From a virus: 24,942 nucleotides of DNA. Within the stretch, counting starts at the first letter, position 1. Each line of letters starts with the position of its first letter. The position numbers and the translations under genes are program-made. The notes beneath the pieces were generated by a model, which made no database searches, was not told the origin of the DNA, and saw only the letters and a program-made list of their open reading frames with translations. Below are positions 7,543 to 17,198 of this stretch, piece by piece. The stretch is from IMG/VR virus record IMGVR_UViG_3300037063_000214. One strand, written 5' to 3'.

Positions 7543-7657
7543 GAGCCGATAAACAGGCAGCAAGGTGGGGTTCGGTAGAACCGACAAAATGATGCGAGAA
7601 GCGGACAAGCACTTCATATGACGGCTGTAGTATCATAGGTACAAGGAATAACAGGTG

Positions 7658-8209
7658 ATGAAAATAGAGGATTCTGTGGAAACTGTGAATACATCAGCTA
7701 AAATTGATATCTTTAAATATGAATGGGAATTTTTGTCTAATTTTTATCCCTGTGAGATTGTTTGGGAAGGAATTACTTACGCTTCCACAGAGCACGCATA
7801 CCAAGCGGCTAAGACACTGGATATAGAGAAACGCCGGATGTTTGGATTAGAAGACAACCCTCGTTTAACAGCCAAAAAAGCAAAAGATATGGGAGCAAAT
7901 ATCAAGAAGAACGGAGAGCTGCGCTCCGATTGGCTCAAAGTCAATATCGGCATCATGCGGGAATTGTTGGTATTGAAATTTGAGAAAGAAGAGCTGAAAC
8001 AAAAATTATTGTCCACAGGCACCGCTTATTTGGAAGAAGGGAACTGGTGGGAAGACAATTTTTGGGGTGTTTGTTATGGGGGCACAGAAAAAGGGTTCCA
8101 TGGAATCAAATGCGGCAAATGGCCCCATGTCCCTTCGGGTGAAAATCATTTAGGTTTATTGCTTATGGCTATTAGGGCTACGTTTATTCCTAGAATACAG
8201 GTGGCATAA
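7658..8209 (+). CDS. NADAR-domain protein (YbiA/DUF1768-like). Predicted ADP-ribose-processing hydrolase.
   Basis: Signature IDIFKYEWEFLSNFYPCEIVWEGITYASTEHAYQAAK. aggtg sits immediately upstream of the ATG. Confidence 0.8.
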   Translation: MKIEDSVETVNTSAKIDIFKYEWEFLSNFYPCEIVWEGITYASTEHAYQAAKTLDIEKRRMFGLEDNPRLTAKKAKDMGANIKKNGELRSDWLKVNIGIMRELLVLKFEKEELKQKLLSTGTAYLEEGNWWEDNFWGVCYGGTEKGFHGIKCGKWPHVPSGENHLGLLLMAIRATFIPRIQVA

Positions 8210-8210
8210 A

Positions 8211-8387
8211 ATGACAAAAAACGAAATACTATACAACTTAAAAAACGGACGAAGGTTGCGTTGCGATAGGAAAGATGAACCGTTATTGCCTTGGTTGCTA
8301 GAACATCCAAACATCCAGAATAAATTTGTGCAAGTTGATGACCAGTCTAGCTATATTGAATTTATTTGGGAGAAAAATAATCCTTGA
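8211..8387 (+). CDS. Hypothetical 58-aa protein.
   Basis: ATG lies 1 nt after the NADAR stop. It is 58 codons long. Its stop overlaps the TTGACA of the next promoter. It is too short for the ORF track. Confidence 0.4.
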   Translation: MTKNEILYNLKNGRRLRCDRKDEPLLPWLLEHPNIQNKFVQVDDQSSYIEFIWEKNNP

Positions 8388-8412
8388 CAATTTTTCAACT
8401 ACCCAGTATTAT
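8384..8412 (+). promoter_or_regulatory. Sigma70-consensus promoter, TTGACA-17-TATTAT. Same family as the promoter at 1392.
   Basis: TTGACA at 8384-8389 and TATTAT at 8407-8412. The shared core is caactacccagtattata. Confidence 0.7.
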
Positions 8413-8656
8413 ATAAAGAGTAGTAGTAAAGTAAAAGTTGGCTCGGAACGAGCCATCAGGAAATGGGGGGTTTTGGGTAAAACTGAAGCCCATCACCAAA
8501 ATTGAGATAATTATGACCAAAATGCGACCGATGCCGATGTTTCCACCAAGCCCTATGGGGCGCGGGGTCGCTGGACTTTAGTCCAACCCCGTGCTAGCGG
8601 GGTTCTGTTGTTGTAACAAATTTTCCCATATCAAACAGAAATCCCTTTTTGCATTT

Positions 8657-8731
8657 CAGGGTATAGTGTTAATGGTAGCACCCTAGTTTCGGGAACTAGT
8701 AGTCTCAGATCATTCCTGAGTACCCTGACCA
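8657..8731 (+). tRNA. tRNA-Pro, anticodon CGG. It has Pro identity elements C1:G72 and A73. The T-loop is non-canonical, atcattc, with A54:U58 swapped.
   Basis: Acceptor cagggta/taccctg. D arm gtgt/gcac with GG in the loop. Anticodon stem ctagt/actag with loop ttCGGga. T stem ctcag/ctgag. ACCA. Confidence 0.6.
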
Positions 8732-8830
8732 GTTTACGGTGTAGCTCAGCCCGGTTTAGAGCAAGCACACCGACTTTCGTTACTTTTTGTACAGCTATCA
8801 AGATTTTTTGTAAAAGGAGTTACTTTTAAG

Positions 8831-8905
8831 CAGGGCGTAGATCAGAGGAAGATCGCAAGTCTGGGGGACTTGAGGCCGGAATATCATAATTTCCCGCCCT
8901 GACCA
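8831..8905 (+). tRNA. tRNA-Pro, anticodon GGG. C1:G72 and A73. The T-loop is non-canonical, atcataa, again with A54:U58. One T-stem pair is a mismatch.
   Basis: Acceptor cagggcg/cgccctg. D arm gatc/gatc. Anticodon stem caagt/acttg with loop ctGGGgg. Then ACCA. Confidence 0.55.
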
Positions 8906-8927
8906 CAGTTTGAAAATTTAAATTTAA

Positions 8928-9013
8928 CTAGGTGTCGGGTAGTTTGGTTTAGCCCACATGCCTTGGGCGCATGTCTCGAAAGAGAATCGCAGGTTCAAAT
9001 CCTGCCACCTAGA
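8928..9013 (+). tRNA. tRNA-Pro-like, anticodon TGG. C1:G72 and A73, but with a class-II-like 15-nt variable-arm hairpin (tctc-gaaa-gaga). No CCA is encoded.
   Basis: Acceptor ctaggtg/cacctag is perfect. D arm gggt/gccc. Anticodon stem catgc/gcatg with loop ctTGGgc. T arm gcagg-ttcaaat-cctgc is canonical. Confidence 0.5.
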
Positions 9014-9079
9014 CATTGGCGACTGTCAGCCGTTAGTAAGTCTGACTTAAAGGCGCATAGAGCGCAGTCGCACTTTTTT

Positions 9080-9340
9080 ATGAGTGTATTCGGCAATACA
9101 TGCGGCGTACGCATTTACAGAGGTCCATGCACCTGTAAAACTGCCTGCCCTAAATGTCAAATAGGCTGCTGGAATCCCGCTGCATATCGTAACCCATGGT
9201 TTGGGAAGCCTGGGCACCAGATTTATTGGTGGAGGGATCCATACAGCTACGCGGAATTTTTATGCGTAGAGCATTATGATGATGCTGTTAAAGACATTGA
9301 AGAATATGAAGAACTTTACCAAACGAAGGGTGTTTGCTGA
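9080..9340 (+). CDS. Cysteine-rich small protein containing CGVRIYRGPCTCKTACPKCQIGCW. The start is uncertain.
   Basis: The first part of the ORF-track ORF 8963-9340 overlaps the tRNA-Pro(TGG)-like gene, so the internal ATG at 9080 was taken. Confidence 0.4.
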   Translation: MSVFGNTCGVRIYRGPCTCKTACPKCQIGCWNPAAYRNPWFGKPGHQIYWWRDPYSYAEFLCVEHYDDAVKDIEEYEELYQTKGVC

Positions 9341-9558: not shown

Positions 9559-10219
9559 ATGATTATCGAAATTAGAGCGGCTGAAGGCGGACAGGACGCA
9601 AAATTACTGGTCGAAGATCAAATGACCATCTACGCGAGGTTGGCGATACGGAGGGGTCTTTGAGTTTGATGTTACCGAACAACGCCCAGGTATAGCTATC
9701 CTGCGCATTACAGGGGCTACAGCGCCTCAAGTCTTCGCTAACGAGGCAGGAGGTCACCGTTTTCAGAGAATTCCTCCCACGGAGCGTAGCGGTAGAGTTC
9801 AAACCAGTACAATTACTGTGGCTGTTTTTGATGAACCGGAAGTTGCTGCTTTTGCCGTATCCCCAAATGATTTGGCATGGGAGACAATGCGCAGCGGGGG
9901 TAAGGGCGGTCAAAACGCCAATAAACTGGAAACAAAAATACGCTTAAAACATAAACCTACAGGATTAGTCGTGGTTTGCGAATCAGAACGTAGCCAAAAA
10001 AGAAATAAAGACACGGCCTTAGCTGTCCTTACAGCACGTTTGTACGCTGCTGATAAGGATAAAAAAGCTGAAGCTGCTACTACGGATAGGCGACAACAAA
10101 TAGGAACGGGACAACGAGGAGATAAACGCCGTACAATACGAGAAAAAGATGGAAAAGTCGTAGACCATATCACCGGTCAAAAATGGCGTTATTCTGATTA
10201 TGTAAAAGGCATTTGGTAA
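9559..10219 (+). CDS. Class-I release-factor homologue lacking domain 1, of the RF-H/PrfH type. The GGQ motif is present. Translation requires a +1 frameshift at CTT-TGA (9658-9663). Frame 1 covers 9559-9660 and frame 2 covers 9662-10219.
   Basis: Frame 1 reads MIIEIRAAEGGQDAKLLVEDQMTIYARLAIRRGL and then TGA. The +1 frame continues EFDVTEQRPG...GGHRFQRIPPTERSGRVQTSTITVAV...SGGKGGQNANKLETKIRLKHKPTGLVVVCESERSQKRNKDTALAVLTARL...DHITGQKW. Both parts align colinearly with RF1 domains 2-4. There is no start codon in the second frame between its upstream stop at 9623-9625 and the shift site. A GGAGGGG SD-like element sits just before CTT TGA G, as in prfB. Confidence 0.75.
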
Positions 10220-10222
10220 AAA

Positions 10223-10834
10223 ATGGAACAATATCCACATATCGAAGGCAGTACAAAGGCTCCTATAGGAGAACCGTGCATCGCTTTTTATAAGTACGAT
10301 GGTAGTAATCTGCGCTTCGAATGGAGCCCTAAAAAAGGCTGGCATAAGTTTGGCACCAGAAAAGAACTTTTTGACGCTCGCCATCCTTTGTGGTCTCAAG
10401 CCCTTCCCTTGTTTTTAGAGTTTGGAGATGAGATTGTAAAACGAGTGAAAGCATCGGATTGGCGATTGAAAGGTATCCAACGAATTACTGTTTTTTGTGA
10501 ATTCTTTGGACCTAGCAGTTTTGCCGGAATTCATGATGAAAAAGAGCCTAAAGAATTGCGTTTGATCGATGTATACCTTTTCAAAAAAGGTATGATGCCA
10601 GCGAAGCAATTTGTAGAAATTTTTGGAGATATGCCCCAGGCAGCACAGGTAATTTATCAGGGAAATTTGACTAAGCAATTCATAGATGATGTGCGCTTTG
10701 GGGCTTATTCTGTGAATGAGGGCGTGGTCGCTAAGGGCGCTGATTTTCGGGTAAAAATAAAAACTGCTGCTTACTTCAAAAAATTGAATGAACGGCTCCC
10801 AGAGTTAGCGAATGCCTTTGATTGTGAGTATTAG
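10223..10834 (+). CDS. Minimal ATP-dependent RNA ligase of the Rnl2 family. Adenylyltransferase core only, 203 aa.
   Basis: Motif I KYDGSN (KxxGxN). Motif III ITVFCEFFGPSSFAG (compare Rnl2 VFGEFAGPG). Motif IV EGVVAK. Motif V RVKIKT. It starts 4 nt after the release-factor stop. Confidence 0.75.
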   Translation: MEQYPHIEGSTKAPIGEPCIAFYKYDGSNLRFEWSPKKGWHKFGTRKELFDARHPLWSQALPLFLEFGDEIVKRVKASDWRLKGIQRITVFCEFFGPSSFAGIHDEKEPKELRLIDVYLFKKGMMPAKQFVEIFGDMPQAAQVIYQGNLTKQFIDDVRFGAYSVNEGVVAKGADFRVKIKTAAYFKKLNERLPELANAFDCEY

Positions 10835-10844
10835 ACTCTGTACG

Positions 10845-11110
10845 AGTTTGTGCTAATACGAGGTGCGGAGTTCCATAGATTTAGGCGGAACAAGACCTAA
10901 TTTCGGAACTCTACTGGCGACGGTCAGAGTTACCTCGTAGCACAATTTCCCAAACAGATACTTGTCTGGGAGAACTTGAGGACTCAGTGAGCCTCAGGTG
11001 GGGCATATTGGTGGACCCCTGTCCTTCGGGACTTAATCTGGCGGCCCAAGACGAGGAGTCAAGGGCTTAAAGAATCCTAGATTTTTAGTCTGGGAGCATC
11101 AAGCAGTATT
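10845..11110 (+). ncRNA. Structured non-coding region and candidate ncRNA. It has a long closing helix (gtgctaatacgaggt / acctcgtagcac), nested hairpins, and a gtcc-ttcg-ggac tetraloop hairpin.
   Basis: No ORF. Multiple compensatory stems were read by eye. Function unknown. Confidence 0.3.
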
Positions 11111-11211: not shown

Positions 11212-11290
11212 GCCAGTGTAGCATAGTCCGGCCTAATGCGCTTCGCTCATAACGAAGAGATCGGTGGTTCAAATCCACCCGCTGGTACCA
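11212..11290 (+). tRNA. tRNA-Met (elongator type), or tRNA-Ile2 if lysidinylated. Anticodon CAT. CCA is encoded.
   Basis: Acceptor gccagtg/cgctggt with two G-U pairs. D arm gcat/atgc. Anticodon stem cttcg/cgaag with loop ctCATaa. T arm ggtgg-ttcaaat-ccacc. ACCA. Confidence 0.7.
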
Positions 11291-11349
11291 AAATTTTAAT
11301 GGAAAGTATAGGGAACTATATAGTTAACTCCCCCGGCTAGAACATAACA

Positions 11350-12477
11350 ATGCTGAGAACTTTTCAATGTCGGTTGTATCCAAACGCGACGCAGAGACAC
11401 GCGCTGGAGTTCGTCTTGCGTGACAACGCGGAGACGTACAACGCGGCTCTTGCAGAGCGCCGAGATGCATGGAAGTTGGAGCGCAAGGCGATCACCTATC
11501 GAATGCAACAGGACGAACTAACAGAACTACGCCGTGATGAACAATTTGCAAGAGTCGCCTGCGACATTCAACGTGATCCCTTGAGAAGGGTTGACCGAGC
11601 ATTCCAAGCGTTCTTTCGGCGTTGTAAAGCAGGCCAGAAGCCAGGCTTTCCTCGTTTTCGCTCTCATCTGCGCTACGACTCTTTTGGATTCAGTCTCCCA
11701 GTCGTGAATAGTGAACGTCTGAGGATTCCGAATGTGGGGCAGATCAAACTGCGCGGAGGCCGCAGCATTGCAGGTAAGGCGAAGTGTTGCACGGTCAAGC
11801 GAGACGGCAACCGTTGGACGGCTTCAGTCGTGTGCGACATTGGTCCGGCACCAGGGAAGCGTATGGTAACAAATGCTGTCGGAATAGATATGGGCCTGAC
11901 GACGCTCGCCACGCTGTCGGACGGGACGGAGATTGAGAACCCACGCTGGACCCGACAGCACGAAGACCTGATTGCAGCCGCGAATCGCCTACTGGCACGG
12001 AAGCATAAACGTTCGAAGAACCGCATCCGGGCGCGGGAAGCACTGCATCGCGCTCACCAGCGGGCCGCGAATGCCCGTCGCAACTATCTGCATCACGTTT
12101 CCAAATGGCTTGTGGGTAATTACGACCTGATCGCCCACGAAGCCTTAAACATTAAAGGCATGGCGCAAGGACATTTCGCCAAGTCGATTATGGATGCCGC
12201 ATGGAGCATTCTGCTGTCGCAAGTACGCTACAAGGCTGAGAGTGCCGGAGTGTACGCGATAGCGGTGAATCCACGCGGCACGTCACAAATGTGTTCGGGT
12301 TGCGGTCGAAACGTTCCGAAGAAACTGGCGCAGCGGGTGCATAGCTGTCCGCACTGCGGTCTAGTTCTGGGGCGTGACCACAATGCCGGACGGAACATTT
12401 TAGCGTTGGGGATCAACGCTGCGGGCGTAAGCCTTCAAAATCTACACACGACTCGGGTTAGGGAGTTATGTATATAA
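11350..12477 (+). CDS. tnpB: TnpB (IS200/IS605 family OrfB), an RNA-guided RuvC-like nuclease.
   Basis: N-terminal MLRTFQCRLYPNATQRHALE. RuvC-I GIDMGL. RuvC-II LIAHEALNIKGM. C-terminal zinc finger CSGCG...CPHCG followed by RDHNAGRNI. It is markedly more GC-rich than the flanking DNA. Confidence 0.9.
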   Translation: MLRTFQCRLYPNATQRHALEFVLRDNAETYNAALAERRDAWKLERKAITYRMQQDELTELRRDEQFARVACDIQRDPLRRVDRAFQAFFRRCKAGQKPGFPRFRSHLRYDSFGFSLPVVNSERLRIPNVGQIKLRGGRSIAGKAKCCTVKRDGNRWTASVVCDIGPAPGKRMVTNAVGIDMGLTTLATLSDGTEIENPRWTRQHEDLIAAANRLLARKHKRSKNRIRAREALHRAHQRAANARRNYLHHVSKWLVGNYDLIAHEALNIKGMAQGHFAKSIMDAAWSILLSQVRYKAESAGVYAIAVNPRGTSQMCSGCGRNVPKKLAQRVHSCPHCGLVLGRDHNAGRNILALGINAAGVSLQNLHTTRVRELCI

Positions 12478-12489
12478 GTCCCAAATATC

Positions 12490-12518
12490 TTGACAATTTT
12501 TTAATTATAGGTATTATA
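12490..12518 (+). promoter_or_regulatory. Sigma70-consensus promoter of the TTGACA / TATTAT family. It lies directly after the tnpB stop and points into the structured region.
   Basis: TTGACA at 12490-12495 and attata/tattat 17 nt downstream. Confidence 0.6.
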
Positions 12519-12743
12519 ATAATTGAAGCGTGGAACCCTTTTTACCTGACGAGGGAGTTTGTCGAAGTTGAGCCGCTCCTGCGATGATTGGCGGATCAAC
12601 AAGGTCTCGCAAGAGAGTGAGCTTAGCAAAGCTCCAACCGTGCAACAGGGTTCCCACTTTCTTATTTAAGTTTTGGGATAGGCAGTCGCCTTAAAGCGTC
12701 TGCCAATGGAAGTGCATAGCGCTTTCCGTTCCCAATAAAATTT

Positions 12744-12821
12744 GCGGGGATTAAGCTACGGTGCGCTTGGATGTCTCATAAGCATTCCTCTTAGGTGGTT
12801 CAACTCCACCCTCCGCTACCA
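12744..12821 (+). pseudogene. Degenerate tRNA-like element with a CAT anticodon arm. It is possibly a remnant or duplicate of tRNA-Met.
   Basis: D arm aagc/gctt. Anticodon stem gatgt/gcatt with loop ctCATaa. T arm ggtgg-ttcaact-ccacc. It ends in tACCA, but the acceptor stem pairs poorly. Confidence 0.35.
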
Positions 12822-12888
12822 TTTCAAAACCCCGACTTTGAATATCTTGTTATGAGTCAGTATTATATGTATAAGTTAAGGAGAAAAT

Positions 12889-13509
12889 ATGCAGCAAAAA
12901 TCTAGTTTTCAAAAAGCAATTGTAGCATTGATGTTGTGTGGAGTTATGACATTTGTAGGATGTACCGCATCATGGGTCAATACATTTGACACCGTTATCA
13001 GCGTTGCCGCTCCTGCTTTGACCGGTATTTTAGATGTTGCAGCGCTGGCAGATGGAAAGCCGGTAGATGCCGCCTTAGTTACAAAAATTAACGCCGATGC
13101 CGCAGCAGTTGAAACTCTCGCCAAAGATTTCGCCAATGCTTCGTCTTCAGCAGGGCCGGGACTTTGTTCACAACTTCAAGTAGGTATAACCACTTATGAA
13201 TCAGACTTGCCGCTAGTATTACAAGTAGCTCAAGTATCTGATCCGAATACAGAAGCAAAAATTGAAGCGTTATCAGCTTTGATTGTTAGCACATTCAATA
13301 GCATTGAGCCTTTAATTCCGAACTGTGCGGCTCCAGCTAAAACCACATTGGCGGTTGCGGTACCATTGTCAGTTAAGAATTTTGTGAATGACTATAACGC
13401 AGAAATGGTTAAGCCAACTGGAAATCCACAGGTAGATGCAGGAACAGCAAAACTTAAACTGCACACGAAATCAACTTTTATGCGCGTGGTAACATTTAGC
13501 TGGTTGTAA
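12889..13509 (+). CDS. Predicted secreted lipoprotein.
   Basis: Strong RBS taaggagaaaatATG. The signal peptide carries the lipobox FVGC (MQQKSSFQKAIVALMLCGVMTFVGC). A promoter-like caGTATTATat lies just upstream. Confidence 0.75.
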   Translation: MQQKSSFQKAIVALMLCGVMTFVGCTASWVNTFDTVISVAAPALTGILDVAALADGKPVDAALVTKINADAAAVETLAKDFANASSSAGPGLCSQLQVGITTYESDLPLVLQVAQVSDPNTEAKIEALSALIVSTFNSIEPLIPNCAAPAKTTLAVAVPLSVKNFVNDYNAEMVKPTGNPQVDAGTAKLKLHTKSTFMRVVTFSWL

Positions 13510-13919
13510 AGTTTCAAAGAGACATAATCCCGTCGCCCTGCTTGCTCGACTAAGGCGGTGTGGGGTGTTGAGACCGGTAAGTTTGACGACGATCCGGGTA
13601 CGAAGTCCCTATCCTTTCTGATAGGGTGGTTGCGGGTGTTCTAGTCCACGCAATGACTAGCTAGCATTTTAGAAGTGATTTTTGTGGCGGGCGCACACGC
13701 AGTGCGTAAGCGGAGGCTGCTGTACAATCTATAGTAGGGAGCCTCACTAATCCGACTGGCGTACGACGGTCGGGATATTGATGAGATGTATCGGAGCGGA
13801 AGCCCACAAAATATTTTCGTTGCAGCAATACCGCAACAAAAGGAAACTTAACCTTTATAGGATCGCGTTCCTACTGGGGTGGATGACGAGTTTCCTTTCC
13901 ATTTCTACCGTAACAGGTA

Positions 13920-13975
13920 AATCAAATGACCAAGAAGAGTTAATCTTGGTCATTTGATTTTATACGCAGTATTAA
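13920..13975 (+). promoter_or_regulatory. A perfect 16-bp hairpin whose 3' arm carries a -35-like TTGGTC. An 18-nt spacer separates it from gcagTATTAAg. This is a promoter-like element with an overlapping operator or terminator hairpin, upstream of the DNA polymerase gene.
   Basis: aatcaaatgaccaaga / tcttggtcatttgatt with an 8-nt loop. U-rich 3' flank. The -10 resembles the CAGTATTA promoter-family core. Confidence 0.45.
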
Positions 13976-13997
13976 GTCTGATAGAGGTTCAAAGAAC

Positions 13998-16900
13998 TTG
14001 TCAGACTTCAATCCCCCAATTATTGACCCCCTGGAAGTACCAGTCAAGCCTAAAAGAAAGCGTAAGCTTGCTTCCCCTCCATCCAAGGTAAAGAAACCAA
14101 AAGTAGCTCGGGATCTTCGTTCAGTTTTCCTTGAAAAATTAAAAGAAATTTCAGTTGAAAAAATCAAGAAACCTTGGATGGCAGAAAAAGTTTTTCGATT
14201 AATTAATACTACATCTGAGTTAGAAACTTGGGTAGAAAAAGTCTTAACTGATAAGTCTCAATTCCACACTCAATTTAAGCATACATGCCCAGTCTTGGCG
14301 GTTGATACAGAAACCACTAGCTTAGATACTCGTATCTTTTCTACTCTTCAACAACTACCTAGCGGGGAATCAGAACTTCAATATGAAGTGAAAGTTGAAA
14401 TTGCAGGAGTATGTCTGTCTGTAAATGGTATCGAAGGTGTGTACATTCCCATCAACCATGAAAGCGGAAGCAATATTCCACGAGCTGATGCGGCTCGTAT
14501 TTTACAACGATTATTTGATAACTGCCATTTGATTTTCTACAATGGTAAGTTTGATCGTGAAGTGTTACGTATTACTTTGGGTATCAATTTCAGACCCTAT
14601 CCATTTTTTGAAGATGTTCAAGTACTGCAATATATCAATGACCCCAAAGCAGATTTAGGGAAGTCTGGTACTTGGGCTGGGGATAGCGGCACATTAAAAA
14701 AATTGTCAGAAAGTAAGCTGGGAATTGAACAGATTGAAATTAAAGAAATTGCCAAAGTACGAGCGCATGTTTGGAATCCGCTTACTCAAAAAAATTCCTT
14801 GAAGATGCAAGTTGTACCCTTTACTTGGGTACCTCCAGAAATAGCTTTGTGGTACGCCGCAGCTGACGCCATATGTACCTGGTTACTCTGGGATAAGATG
14901 AAAGATTTGGCTCGTAGTAGAGACCTAGTTCATCATATTGACCATGAGTTAGTAGATTCTTTATCTTATGTGGAGCGGCAAAGATTTTTGATAGATGTGG
15001 ATCGTCAACGCCGTACCACTCGCTGGCACACAAGAAAAACTCAAGAATTACGAGATGAACTAGGTCAGATGGCGAAAGATGCTGGTTGGGTTAGCCCCAC
15101 CGCAGATGATGAAGACAAAGGCGTATTTAATCCTAGTTCTACAAAGCAATTGGGACCTTTGCTATTCAAGTTGATGGGTTTTAAACCTTATCGGATGACG
15201 GATAAAAACCAAGCATCTACTGACAAAGAAACGCTTCAAGAGTTGGTAAAAGATAACCCGGATAATGAATTTCTTAAGACGCTTCAAGAATATAGAGAGC
15301 TTGCGGCTCTACATCCCGGCAATTTACGTTATGATACCAAAGATAATAGTGCTCGGTTATATTTGAAACAGAATGTAGTAGCTGGTGGAAGATTATCAGG
15401 TTCTGGTGGTAAGTTTGAAAAAGATGGAGGCTTGCAATGGAATCCTCAGGGCGTAAAAAAACTGGAAGAGGATGATTTTTGGCGTGTGTACGGTAATGTA
15501 TTGGAGCCCGATTCTGTTCCTGAGTATGATATTGAAGCGTATACTGAAGAGGATTTACACCCGTCCTGCTTTCAAGAAGATGGAGATAAACGAGAGAAAG
15601 CCCCAGGGATCATAAAAAATCACATAGGATTGTACCAAGATTACGCCATTTGTCTTGTGCCTAAATGTACATCTTGCGCTGATAAATTCGGTATTCTTAT
15701 ACCAGATACTTCTTTAGACGCGAATCAGGTAGTTAACCTGCGTGTGCTATTCGTAGCATCACCCGGTTGGACCTTCTTTTCTATCGATTATCAAAATATC
15801 GAAGTTCGTACAGCGGCTAATTTATCGAAAGAGCCTGAATTGGAAAACATCTTCCTCTTAGGTGATGGAGATCATCACGCCCTTACCGCATCTAAAGTTT
15901 TCCCTGAATATAATGACCCTAAAAGTAAAATGTATAGGTCTAAGTCTCTTCGTGCCATTGCAAAAATTATTAACTTCGCTCTCCAATATGGCGGCACTTC
16001 TCACGCTATTTACAAAAATATGGTGAAGAATGATCCGACCATCACTAAGGAAAAAGCGGAAGAGATGGTTACGAAATATTGGGCTGGCGTTCCTAAATTT
16101 AAAGAATGGTGCGAAGGAAGACAAGCACGGGCGCGGGATGCATTTGTTAGTGAGACAGCTACGGGGCGTGTTATCAACTTTAAATCTGCTATGGAAGCTG
16201 AACATCTACATGTTCCCACCAGAGATGAAAGAAGCAGGTTGAGTCAATACTATGAGTGGAACAAAGAAGCCAAGAAAGCTAAAGCGGATCAAAACTCCGA
16301 TAGAGAGATGAAGTACCGTAAGGCAGCGGATAATTTATTTAAGAACCTAGATACAGGAGTACGTAACGCCATAGAATACAATAAATTCTTGGGGTATATT
16401 CAACGGGTGGCTGTTAATTGCCCCGTACAAGGATTATCTGGGGATTTCATGCGCATCGCAATTAACCGTATAAAAAAGTGGGTGGAGAAAGACCCGCAAA
16501 TTCAAAGGGTATTTCGTTTTCACGGGTCTGTACATGATGAGATTGATATCAGTATTAAAAATGAATATGTGCCCTTTATCTTACCTCGTCTTACCCGATT
16601 AATGAAGTTACGTAAATATCATAAAAAGATGGATTGGAATGTTCCTATTGAGTGTGATGCTGAATATGGGCATAGCTGGGATGTAGATTATAATGTTACA
16701 GACAAAAAATTTCCAGCGGCTTACACCCATATCCCGGGCTGGGAGTCTTATGTACCCTCAGATTTTGATATGAAGACTGTAAAGAATCTTTATCAGGCTT
16801 TTATATCGGGGGATGATGTTAGAAAAGAAAAAGCCAAGAATTGGATTACTGAAATATTGCATTCAAAAGTGCAACAATCAGTGAAGACTTTATTTGAGTC

Positions 16901-17198
16901 TAAGGATCCAGTAAAGATTAAAAACCAACTTATCGCCGTACTACAGTTACATGAATATTGGATGATTGATTGGACGCCAGATGAGGATGAAGCTAAACTT
17001 GAGACCCTAGAGCGGTACGAACAAAGAATGGGATTTTCACCTGACGATAGAGACAAAAGTTGTCCGGAGTTTGGTTATATGGGGGCTATTCCACTTTCTG
17101 CCCCTGTGATTCGCCCTGATGTACATACGCTAACTTGTGAATCAGAATCTTCTTCTGAGCAGGAACTAGTATTGGCAAATGCTTACGGAGCACCTTAA
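13998..17198 (+). CDS. Family-A (PolA-type) DNA polymerase with a 3'-5' exonuclease domain and large insertions. It has no 5'-3' exonuclease domain.
   Basis: Exo I LAVDTETTSLD and Exo III YAAADA. Pol motif A DYQNIEVRTAA. Motif B RSKSLRAIAKIINFALQYGG. Motif C VHDEID. The first in-frame start is TTG at 13998. The next ATG is at 14178. Confidence 0.9.
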   Translation: MSDFNPPIIDPLEVPVKPKRKRKLASPPSKVKKPKVARDLRSVFLEKLKEISVEKIKKPWMAEKVFRLINTTSELETWVEKVLTDKSQFHTQFKHTCPVLAVDTETTSLDTRIFSTLQQLPSGESELQYEVKVEIAGVCLSVNGIEGVYIPINHESGSNIPRADAARILQRLFDNCHLIFYNGKFDREVLRITLGINFRPYPFFEDVQVLQYINDPKADLGKSGTWAGDSGTLKKLSESKLGIEQIEIKEIAKVRAHVWNPLTQKNSLKMQVVPFTWVPPEIALWYAAADAICTWLLWDKMKDLARSRDLVHHIDHELVDSLSYVERQRFLIDVDRQRRTTRWHTRKTQELRDELGQMAKDAGWVSPTADDEDKGVFNPSSTKQLGPLLFKLMGFKPYRMTDKNQASTDKETLQELVKDNPDNEFLKTLQEYRELAALHPGNLRYDTKDNSARLYLKQNVVAGGRLSGSGGKFEKDGGLQWNPQGVKKLEEDDFWRVYGNVLEPDSVPEYDIEAYTEEDLHPSCFQEDGDKREKAPGIIKNHIGLYQDYAICLVPKCTSCADKFGILIPDTSLDANQVVNLRVLFVASPGWTFFSIDYQNIEVRTAANLSKEPELENIFLLGDGDHHALTASKVFPEYNDPKSKMYRSKSLRAIAKIINFALQYGGTSHAIYKNMVKNDPTITKEKAEEMVTKYWAGVPKFKEWCEGRQARARDAFVSETATGRVINFKSAMEAEHLHVPTRDERSRLSQYYEWNKEAKKAKADQNSDREMKYRKAADNLFKNLDTGVRNAIEYNKFLGYIQRVAVNCPVQGLSGDFMRIAINRIKKWVEKDPQIQRVFRFHGSVHDEIDISIKNEYVPFILPRLTRLMKLRKYHKKMDWNVPIECDAEYGHSWDVDYNVTDKKFPAAYTHIPGWESYVPSDFDMKTVKNLYQAFISGDDVRKEKAKNWITEILHSKVQQSVKTLFESKDPVKIKNQLIAVLQLHEYWMIDWTPDEDEAKLETLERYEQRMGFSPDDRDKSCPEFGYMGAIPLSAPVIRPDVHTLTCESESSSEQELVLANAYGAP

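Follow-up and report, generated by a model that had tools for sequence, protein, structure and literature searches.

This report concerns the proline transfer RNA (tRNA) genes at positions 8657–9013 of a 24,942-nucleotide stretch of viral DNA (IMG/VR virus record IMGVR_UViG_3300037063_000214; the whole stretch is referred to here as the window). Three genes with anticodons CGG, GGG and UGG are found in this segment, and in the first two of them the T-loop pair U54.A58 is reversed to A54.U58. Few nucleotides in biology are as strongly conserved as T54 and A58, and both are treated as fixed in textbook accounts of tRNA structure. The reversal is derived in the lineage of this phage, and comparison of sequences indicates that it is a recurrent, phage-enriched form of T-loop rewriting. 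On balance, we think it reasonably probable that the locus is a functional proline block in which two T-loops have been rewritten with preservation of structure, likely against T-loop-directed host factors, and in which the UGG gene is an ordinary class-I tRNA with an added hairpin.

The three tRNA-Pro genes

The three cloverleaves are real tRNA-Pro genes (Table 1). All score above the gathering score of 29 bits for the Rfam tRNA covariance model (RF00005), with matches that span model positions 1–71 of 71, and the minimum-free-energy (MFE) folds of the CGG and GGG genes are cloverleaves. The positions and sequence details given for them in an earlier reading made from the letters alone (the sequence-only reading) are correct, and gene predictors do not reject the set, with two genes called by ARAGORN and all three by Rfam. 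The GGG gene was missed by ARAGORN and by a whole-window Rfam scan, and was found on searching 8600–9080 with laxer filters; tRNA finders could be improved in this respect, as ARAGORN and the default Rfam filters both passed over it. Two further metagenome assemblies of this phage, L008 and L009, match the segment 8400–9100 with 100% identity, while the rest of these contigs departs from the window by single-nucleotide polymorphisms, small indels and whole segments; because the tRNA segment is identical in assemblies that differ elsewhere, the unusual genes are not an assembly error. A structure-anchored pattern for tRNA-Pro(CGG) has one match in the window and 0 in 100 shuffles.

In Escherichia coli the identity set for prolyl-tRNA synthetase (ProRS) comprises G35, G36, A73, C1:G72 (G72) and G15:C48. 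The first four of these marks are present in all three genes and G15:C48 is present only in the GGG and UGG genes, which bears out the proposal that they are proline genes with bacterial ProRS marks that together cover the CCN codons. All four proline codons are used in the genes of the window (CCU 92, CCC 45, CCA 75 and CCG 36; n = 248). The anticodon loops are UUCGGGA (CGG), CUGGGGG (GGG) and CUUGGGC (UGG), with G37 (the m1G37 site) in each; several Pro tRNAs of related phages have A37 instead.

The T-arm of tRNA-Pro(CGG) is CTCAG-ATCATTC-CTGAG, with the loop at 8709–8715 (A54 at 8709, U58 at 8713, and C60), and that of tRNA-Pro(GGG) is GGAAT-ATCATAA-TTTCC (A54 at 8883, U58 at 8887, and A60). 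The CGG gene carries in full the signature A54-U55-C56-R57-U58-N59-(A/C)60 with G53:C61; the GGG gene fits the loop signature, but its closing pair is a U53.U61 mismatch at the normally invariant G53:C61. Both genes encode CCA. The CGG gene also has U14 in place of A14, A15:U48 and a variable loop of 4 nt. The T-arm of tRNA-Pro(UGG) is canonical (GCAGG-TTCAAAT-CCTGC, with U54 and A58), its 3′ trailer is CAT, and CCA is not encoded. G18, G19, U55 and C56 are kept in all three genes. The U53.U61 mismatch, the U14 with its 4-nt variable loop, and a gene stump at 8737–8779 had all escaped the sequence-only reading.

Table 1. Coordinates of the tRNA-Pro genes and of predicted features around them.
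Feature	Position	Strand	Anticodon	Basis
Promoter-like (sigma-70-like) site, TTGACA-17-TATTAT	8384..8412	+		11/12 consensus match
tRNA-Pro(CGG)	8657..8731	+	8690–8692	ARAGORN call; Rfam 45.8 bits; cloverleaf MFE fold; identical in L008 and L009
Truncated tRNA-Pro(CGG), 5′ half	~8737..8779	+		Aligns locally with L005_CGG, L007_CGG and L014_CGG (5′ halves)
tRNA-Pro(GGG)	8831..8905	+	8863–8865	Rfam 41.7 bits, E = 1.5e-7, lax filters only
tRNA-Pro(UGG)	8928..9013	+	8964–8966	ARAGORN call; Rfam 50.6 bits; domain comparison with relatives
Variable region of tRNA-Pro(UGG), 15 nt, TCTCGAAAGAGAATC	8974..8988	+		Isolated fold ((((....))))..., -3.9 kcal/mol
Branched hairpin GCGACUG...CAGUCGC, then ACUUUUUU	9019..9079	+		Predicted fold -21.2 kcal/mol, z = -1.5

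Origin and recurrence of the A54/U58 swap

Relatives of the phage were fetched via the family A DNA polymerase of the window (PolA; 13998–17198). The PolA proteins of L008, L009 and L010, metagenome contigs from other samples, are identical to that of the window. A megablast of the whole window against GenBank phages gave no match, and among viral contigs there was no match to an exact 30-mer of tRNA-Pro(CGG) or to a degenerate pattern for tRNA-Pro(GGG); the phage itself is represented only in the metagenome collection. IMG/VR contigs of 455,708 and 463,033 bp carry PolA relatives at 57–60% identity, and the window thus belongs to a clade of huge phages. Syntenic tRNA islands lie upstream of PolA in the relatives and contain up to five tRNA-Pro genes together with Met, Gln, Phe, Leu and Tyr genes. 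Throughout 81 tRNA calls from 12 loci, all Pro genes have C1:G72 and A73, the other isotypes have G1:C72, and CCA is encoded in almost all. The tRNA-Pro clusters of the clade are fast-evolving.

The orthologue of the window GGG gene is found in the relative L001 (4857–4931). The two genes are 75% identical, share the D-loop AGAGGAA, the anticodon loop CUGGGGG and U53.U61, and show compensatory differences in all four stems. The T-loop of the L001 gene is the canonical TTCGAAA, and the swap is therefore derived in the window lineage. The CGG gene is another paralogue, with a T-stem unrelated to that of the GGG gene; thus the swap either arose twice or was selected twice. Gene conversion between the two swapped T-loops was considered and is unlikely, with only five loop bases in common and unrelated flanking stems.

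The order of the two changes is suggested by a relative with 72% PolA identity, L011, whose tRNA-Phe(GAA) (109–184) has the T-loop ATCGACA (A54, A58 and A60), where its orthologues have TTCGACT. A54/A58 is the only single-step intermediate observed, in L011 and in other phages, and this suggests that U54 changed to A first and A58 to U second; the L011 gene itself may be an intermediate toward the swap.

The swap recurs among phages. A scan pattern that fixes only U33, G35–G37, G53, A54-U55-C56-R57-U58, C61 and G72-A73-CCA has one match in the window and none in shuffles of it, and in the viral collection it matches in at least 119 loci. Among the 126 viral matches listed, 91 are perfect cloverleaves, and all of these are tRNA-Pro(UGG). 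The swapped viral tRNA-Pro genes comprise at least 27 distinct sequences in 12 clusters (85% identity), and the swap is also seen in many other isotypes. In 185,579 bacterial and archaeal genomes, by comparison, there are 0 cloverleaves among the 128 matches listed. The frame of the pattern also accommodates a canonical tRNA-Pro of bacteria, and this contrast therefore reflects, within the sampling limits given below, a real scarcity in cells; random bacterial loci (889 kb) contained 13 tRNAs, too few for a baseline. The sequence-only reading had called the swap uncommon, which is right for cells but not for phages.

Covariation at 54:58 is seen in tRNAs that the pattern did not select. We collected 211 distinct non-Pro tRNAs with well-paired stems from the neighbourhood of viral pattern matches; A54 is combined with U58 in 29 and with A58 in nine, no U58 is seen outside the A54 class, and the remaining 173 have other combinations (Fisher p = 4e-28). 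U55, C56 and R57 are kept in the swapped class, and position 60 is A or C rather than the usual U, a signature that both window loops fit. The swapped isotypes are Gly, Leu, Met, Glu, His, Lys, Ala, Thr, Asn, Phe, Gln, Trp, Ser and Ile, and phage tRNAs show the same double change with the position-60 signature in 35 or more sequence clusters. In some phages whole sets have shifted. A54 is present in 15 of the 25 tRNAs of L098 (IMGVR_UViG_3300037993_001242, 199 kb), where the A54 tRNAs score 54–62 bits with Rfam, and in 10 of the 12 tRNAs of L138; most tRNAs of these two phages lack U54-U55-C56, with forms that include A54/U58, A54/A58 (ATCGAAG) and C55. The elbow pair 19:56 covaries too: G56 occurs with G18-C19 (5/5), U56 with G18-A19 (2/2) and A56 with G18-U19 (2/3), while C56 tRNAs have GG in 154 of 156 cases. 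The claim that a covarying swap preserves the reverse-Hoogsteen pair needs correction: these comparisons show that some form of 54:58 pairing is selected, and they are silent on its geometry. A weak match to YrlA (a Y RNA-like RNA; 35.9 bits, threshold 69 bits) lies among the tRNA genes of L098 at 8327–8456.

Swapped tRNAs are rare in model phages. The swap is present in one of 119 tRNAs from T5, a T4-like phage, Bxz1, TsarBomba, S-RIM8, CcrSC, RBC8 and DLP_6, and those of the first seven are all canonical in this respect. The single case is an annotated tRNA-Phe-GAA of Stenotrophomonas phage DLP_6, with the T-arm GTCGG-ATCGTTA-CCGAC (L275 4528–4603; KU682439.2 104845–104917); DLP_6, being both cultured and swap-bearing, offers a tractable experimental system. 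Full-text literature searches returned no description of A54/U58 in tRNAs or of phage T-loop variants, which may be explained by this rarity in model phages. While the genes themselves are new tRNAs of a known kind, the rewriting of their T-loops seems to represent a phage-enriched form of tRNA architecture that has not been described before, with a link to T-loop nucleases that can be tested.

An alternative is that the unusual features reflect relaxed constraint, with the lack of CCA, U14, U53.U61 and the unusual T-loops all marking early pseudogenisation in genes with little or no role in translation. The cluster does contain a truncated tRNA-Pro, the relatives have five Pro and two Phe tRNAs where the window has three Pro and no Phe, ARAGORN fails on the GGG gene, and a 'tRNA-Met' at 12744 scores only 22 bits. 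However, the stems stay paired by compensatory changes and the three genes score 12–21 bits above threshold. When 17 class-I Pro tRNAs from the clade, the two swapped genes among them, are aligned, 98.9% of cells are in standard pairs and both sides change in 17 of the 22 pairs, values reached by 0 of 500 shuffles, with slid controls ~40% paired. The complementary change falls precisely at 54 and 58 in two non-sister genes that have U55, C56, R57, G18 and G19 intact, and the phage tRNA clusters described above repeat it together with the position-60 signature, U58 never occurring without A54. Even the U53.U61 mismatch is common to the GGG gene and its L001 orthologue across ~40% PolA divergence. 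The sequence-only reading had taken 54/58 covariation as arguing for function over decay, and these data agree with it: the comparative evidence says that the two swapped genes are not decaying, and we regard pseudogenisation as improbable.

We favor instead a functional block acting as follows. The locus would be the proline block of a huge-phage tRNA island, with three co-oriented and probably co-transcribed genes and a fourth reduced to a stump. Once mature, the tRNAs would most likely be charged by a bacterial-type ProRS through G35, G36, A73 and C1:G72, with G37 available for m1G37, and once charged would decode the CCN codons of the phage during infection. With U54.A58 reversed to A54.U58, position 60 as C or A, and U55, C56, R57, G18 and G19 kept, the elbow could still form. 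The most likely selective reason is removal of the U54-U55-C56 triplet read by T-loop-directed host factors, of which the best documented are nucleases that cut between 54 and 55, namely Cash (CRISPR-associated Schlafen) and CdiA-CT(E479). A probable order is that U54 changed to A, the resulting A54.A58 was tolerated, and A58 then changed to U as a compensating change that would restore the intraloop pair.

Escape from a sequence-reading factor is suggested because the triplet is lost while the tertiary pairs are kept, because this is reached by several routes, and because it is seen in phages and not in the sampled cells. The Cash protein CbCash cleaves 5′ of U55 and targets UUC, and a single substitution of U54 or U55 blocks it; its authors pose the targeting of phage tRNAs as an open question (PMC13462974, 2026). 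CdiA-CT(E479) reads this site as well, its cut falling between pseudouridine and the conserved T (PMC9086364). Nuclease evasion is thus a plausible reason for A54. A broader proposal, that structure-preserving rewriting of T54-psi55-C56 (A54/U58, A54/A58 and 19:56 swaps) is a widespread phage counter-defence against Cash- and E479-type nucleases of which the window genes are an instance, we put forward tentatively, as possible but not probable.

The same rewriting might instead shield the tRNAs from a host-shutoff tRNase of the phage's own, or free them from host T-loop modification or surveillance (TrmA m5U54, TruB, TrmI m1A58). Loss of UUC with preservation of structure, whole-set shifts and phage enrichment apply equally to this explanation, and phage tRNAs are otherwise modified by host enzymes (review, PMC13191261). 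It is nonetheless unlikely, as no T-loop nuclease or T-loop-modifying gene was found among the window genes, literature searches gave no published phage nuclease of this specificity, and it is not obvious how a phage would gain from losing m5U54 or m1A58.

Several observations weigh against evasion of T-loop-directed host factors by a functional block. A reversed trans Watson-Crick/Hoogsteen pair is in principle not isosteric with the original. The swap is present in only two of the 10 tRNA-like genes of the window, and any selective agent must therefore act on these two Pro species in particular. The lineage is losing tRNAs, which keeps relaxed constraint a live alternative; the GGG gene, with its U53.U61, was missed by ARAGORN, and the CGG gene has U14. 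The contrast between phages and cells is a sample estimate obtained with a pattern that demands an encoded CCA and G37, and many of the viral matches come from related contigs of one sample.

Phages repeatedly reverse the 54:58 and G19:C56 pairs and leave the remainder of the tRNA unaltered, and such tRNAs were absent from the cellular genomes sampled. This suggests that the T-loops of phage tRNAs are under a pressure specific to their sequence. If the evasion reading is true, tRNA-based immune evasion extends from the anticodon loop to the tRNA elbow, and the 'invariant' T-loop sequence is dispensable for translation while the tertiary pairs are kept. Natural A54/U58 tRNAs are ready test substrates for whether Schlafen-type effectors target phage tRNAs. 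Swapped tRNAs also define the sequence space of a working T-loop, which is useful for engineering orthogonal or nuclease-resistant tRNAs.

The long-arm tRNA-Pro(UGG) gene

The variable region of the UGG gene contains a hairpin, TCTC-GAAA-GAGA (8974–8985; 4-bp stem and GAAA loop), followed by AUC. Its variable region exceeds 10 nt and folds into a stem-loop, in which it resembles class II tRNAs, but the UGG anticodon, A73 with C1:G72 and the 4-bp D-stem are not those of a class II tRNA. The acceptor stem, anticodon arm and T-arm match canonical Pro tRNAs rather than Leu or Tyr, with 13 of 17 positions of the anticodon arm identical to the canonical L007/L014 TGG genes and 17 of 17 positions of the T-arm identical to L001_CGG. 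The gene follows the GGG gene, as the canonical UGG genes do in L007 and L014, and in it the linker is 2 nt, the D-stem is 4 bp and position 37 is G. Its domains and its complete ProRS marks do not support the proposal that this is a class-II-like tRNA that might be mis-acylated; on these comparisons it is best read as a class-I tRNA-Pro with an acquired 4-bp GAAA hairpin in the variable loop.

This gene had also been described as the only tRNA of the window without an encoded CCA, which holds for the tRNAs supported by covariance models; the weak 'tRNA-Met' at 12744–12817 has a CCA that is out of register. Lack of CCA is unusual for the clade and ordinary for bacterial and phage tRNAs generally, and it implies only a need for a CCA-adding enzyme. 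A class-I tRNA that gained a 4-bp GAAA hairpin and lost its CCA would thus be matured by RNase trimming and CCA addition.

A separate family of long tRNA-Pro(UGG/CGG) genes is present in the relatives (L001 4234–4323 and 4348–4440; L002 1533–1619; L007 3236–3322 and 3365–3454; L014 74–160 and 173–264; and also L003). These have a 4-nt linker after the acceptor stem (8–9), a 5-bp D-stem without position 26, A37, and a covarying 3-bp stem in the variable arm (GCC/GGC, GTC/GAC, GAT/ATC, ACC/GGT), and they score a sub-threshold 22–24 bits. Membership of the window gene in this family was considered and rejected, as its score is 50.6 bits and only its variable arm is not canonical. Long arms are found on class-I tRNAs elsewhere, including tRNA-Lys of 87–90 nt in Caulobacter phages CcrSC and RBC8 (L280 5642–5728; L281 9284–9370 and 9376–9465), a 92-nt tRNA-Ile-TAT in DLP_6, and 92-nt tRNA-Met(CAT) and 91-nt tRNA-Ile(TAT) genes in IMG/VR loci.

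Could the long arm alter the identity of the tRNA? Serylation is unlikely because the seryl-tRNA synthetase SerRS needs G73 (PMC7609411). The bacterial leucyl-tRNA synthetase (LeuRS) takes no account of the anticodon and relies on A73, the U8-A14, G18-U55 and G19-C56 core, and how the variable arm is oriented (PMC2377443), and a dual or altered identity can be envisaged in which LeuRS charges the long-arm tRNA and some CCA/CCN codons are read as Leu. The UGG gene has A73, the tertiary core and a variable arm whose best local match, albeit a weak one at eight of 15 positions, is the variable arm of the window tRNA-Leu(GAG). L005 carries a 78-nt tRNA-Leu(GAG) (1345–1422) with a 5-nt, class-I-type variable loop beside normal long-arm Leu genes, and class switching has thus gone both ways in the clade. 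Set against leucylation are the full ProRS set (C1:G72, A73, G35, G36 and G15:C48), the class-I D-arm of 4 bp, and the Pro-like acceptor stem, anticodon arm and T-arm. Moreover, this is the only UGG isoacceptor of the cluster, so that mis-charging would mistranslate CCA (75 of the 248 Pro codons), and the long arms on Lys, Met and Ile tRNAs of other phages come with no sign of recoding. We consider leucylation very unlikely.

Genomic setting and comparison with known systems

The stump in Table 1, between the CGG and GGG genes, comprises the 5′ strand of an acceptor stem, a D-arm and an anticodon stem up to the TTCG of the anticodon loop. No 3′ half was found downstream, where there is unrelated AT-rich sequence instead, and neither Rfam nor ARAGORN calls the stump; its alignments identify it as a pseudogene remnant of a canonical tRNA-Pro(CGG). 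The promoter-like site lies ~245 nt upstream of the first tRNA and may drive the cluster, although the region is no richer in sites of this kind than shuffles would lead one to expect. The predicted hairpin and its U-run follow the third tRNA, and could possibly be a terminator that closes the tRNA-Pro transcription unit; a terminator scan made no call here (the loop is too long). Together the two features are weak evidence for a single transcription unit.

Two tRNA-Phe(GAA) genes are present ~2.4 kb upstream of PolA in all of the relatives (L001–L029), and a search of window 12450–14050 and 8150–8700 with lax Rfam filters found neither this pair nor other atypical tRNAs. At 12744–12817 ARAGORN calls a tRNA-Met(CAT), which has an imperfect acceptor stem and the 3′ end …CGC-T-ACCA, and to which covariance models give only 22 bits (to tRNA-Sec, sub-threshold); this is either a degenerate or an unusual tRNA. 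The truncated Pro gene, the absence of the tRNA-Phe pair and the sub-threshold Met indicate that the window lineage is losing tRNAs.

The window also encodes two AAA ATPases, a NADAR protein, an RF-1-domain protein, TnpB, the family A DNA polymerase, a DNA methyltransferase, an HNH endonuclease and a portal-like protein. The tRNA-Pro cluster is flanked by the genes for the NADAR-domain protein (7655–8209) and the RF-1-domain protein (9818–10219), the latter a relative of peptidyl-tRNA hydrolases and release factors with PHROG matches to 1.9e-22; these are translation- or ADP-ribose-related genes inside the tRNA island. A 1171-bp TnpB segment (11312–12482; OrfB_IS605 and Cas12f-like TNB domains) adjoins a tRNA-Met at 11212–11290, and in L008 and L009, which are otherwise near-identical to the window, an unrelated 361-bp segment takes its place; the difference looks like a recent mobile-element polymorphism. 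L009 further has ~1351 extra bases at the equivalent of 7541 and lacks 10825–11049, strain-level indels of the tRNA island.

The window genes can be compared with several known systems. The bacterial tRNA-Pro set, as in proK, proL and proM of E. coli, has the same anticodons (CGG, GGG and UGG), C1:G72, A73, G35-G36 and G37 on a standard 7/5 cloverleaf; G15:C48 and CCA are each present in two of the three window genes. The window set departs from it in the A54/U58 of two genes, the U53.U61 of one, the U14 of one and the 15-nt arm without CCA of one, and in being phage-encoded and fast-evolving.

Phage tRNAs that escape anticodon-loop nucleases are known from T5, whose tRNA-Lys escapes PARIS AriB and whose tRNA-Tyr escapes retron/PtuAB (cited in PMC13462974). 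The window genes resemble these in having substitutions at conserved loop positions and in the proposed logic that function is kept while the nuclease site is lost. They differ in that the changes are in the T-loop and need a second-site change (at 58, or at 19 for 56); T5 itself has canonical T-loops.

The eukaryotic initiator tRNA has an A54/A58 arrangement (PMC7912444). With A54, A58 and A60 it is like the window tRNAs in A54 and a position 60 other than U, and the A54/A58 phage tRNAs (L011 Phe, and the L098 ATCGAAG loops) resemble it; in contrast, the window tRNAs have U58 and are elongators with Pro identity in a bacterial system.

Finally, the window UGG tRNA shares a stem-loop variable region of at least 10 nt with class II tRNAs (Leu, Ser, Tyr and Sec) and allo-tRNAs, but differs from them in its Pro anticodon, 4-bp D-stem, 7/5 acceptor/T arrangement, A73 with C1:G72, and affinity to class-I Pro tRNAs. 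Further parallels are the long-arm class-I tRNAs of phages (tRNA-Lys of 84–90 nt in CcrSC and RBC8, and the 92-nt tRNA-Ile-TAT of DLP_6), which likewise carry an extra hairpin and lie in large-phage tRNA islands, although the window UGG gene is of a different isotype and unrelated in sequence.

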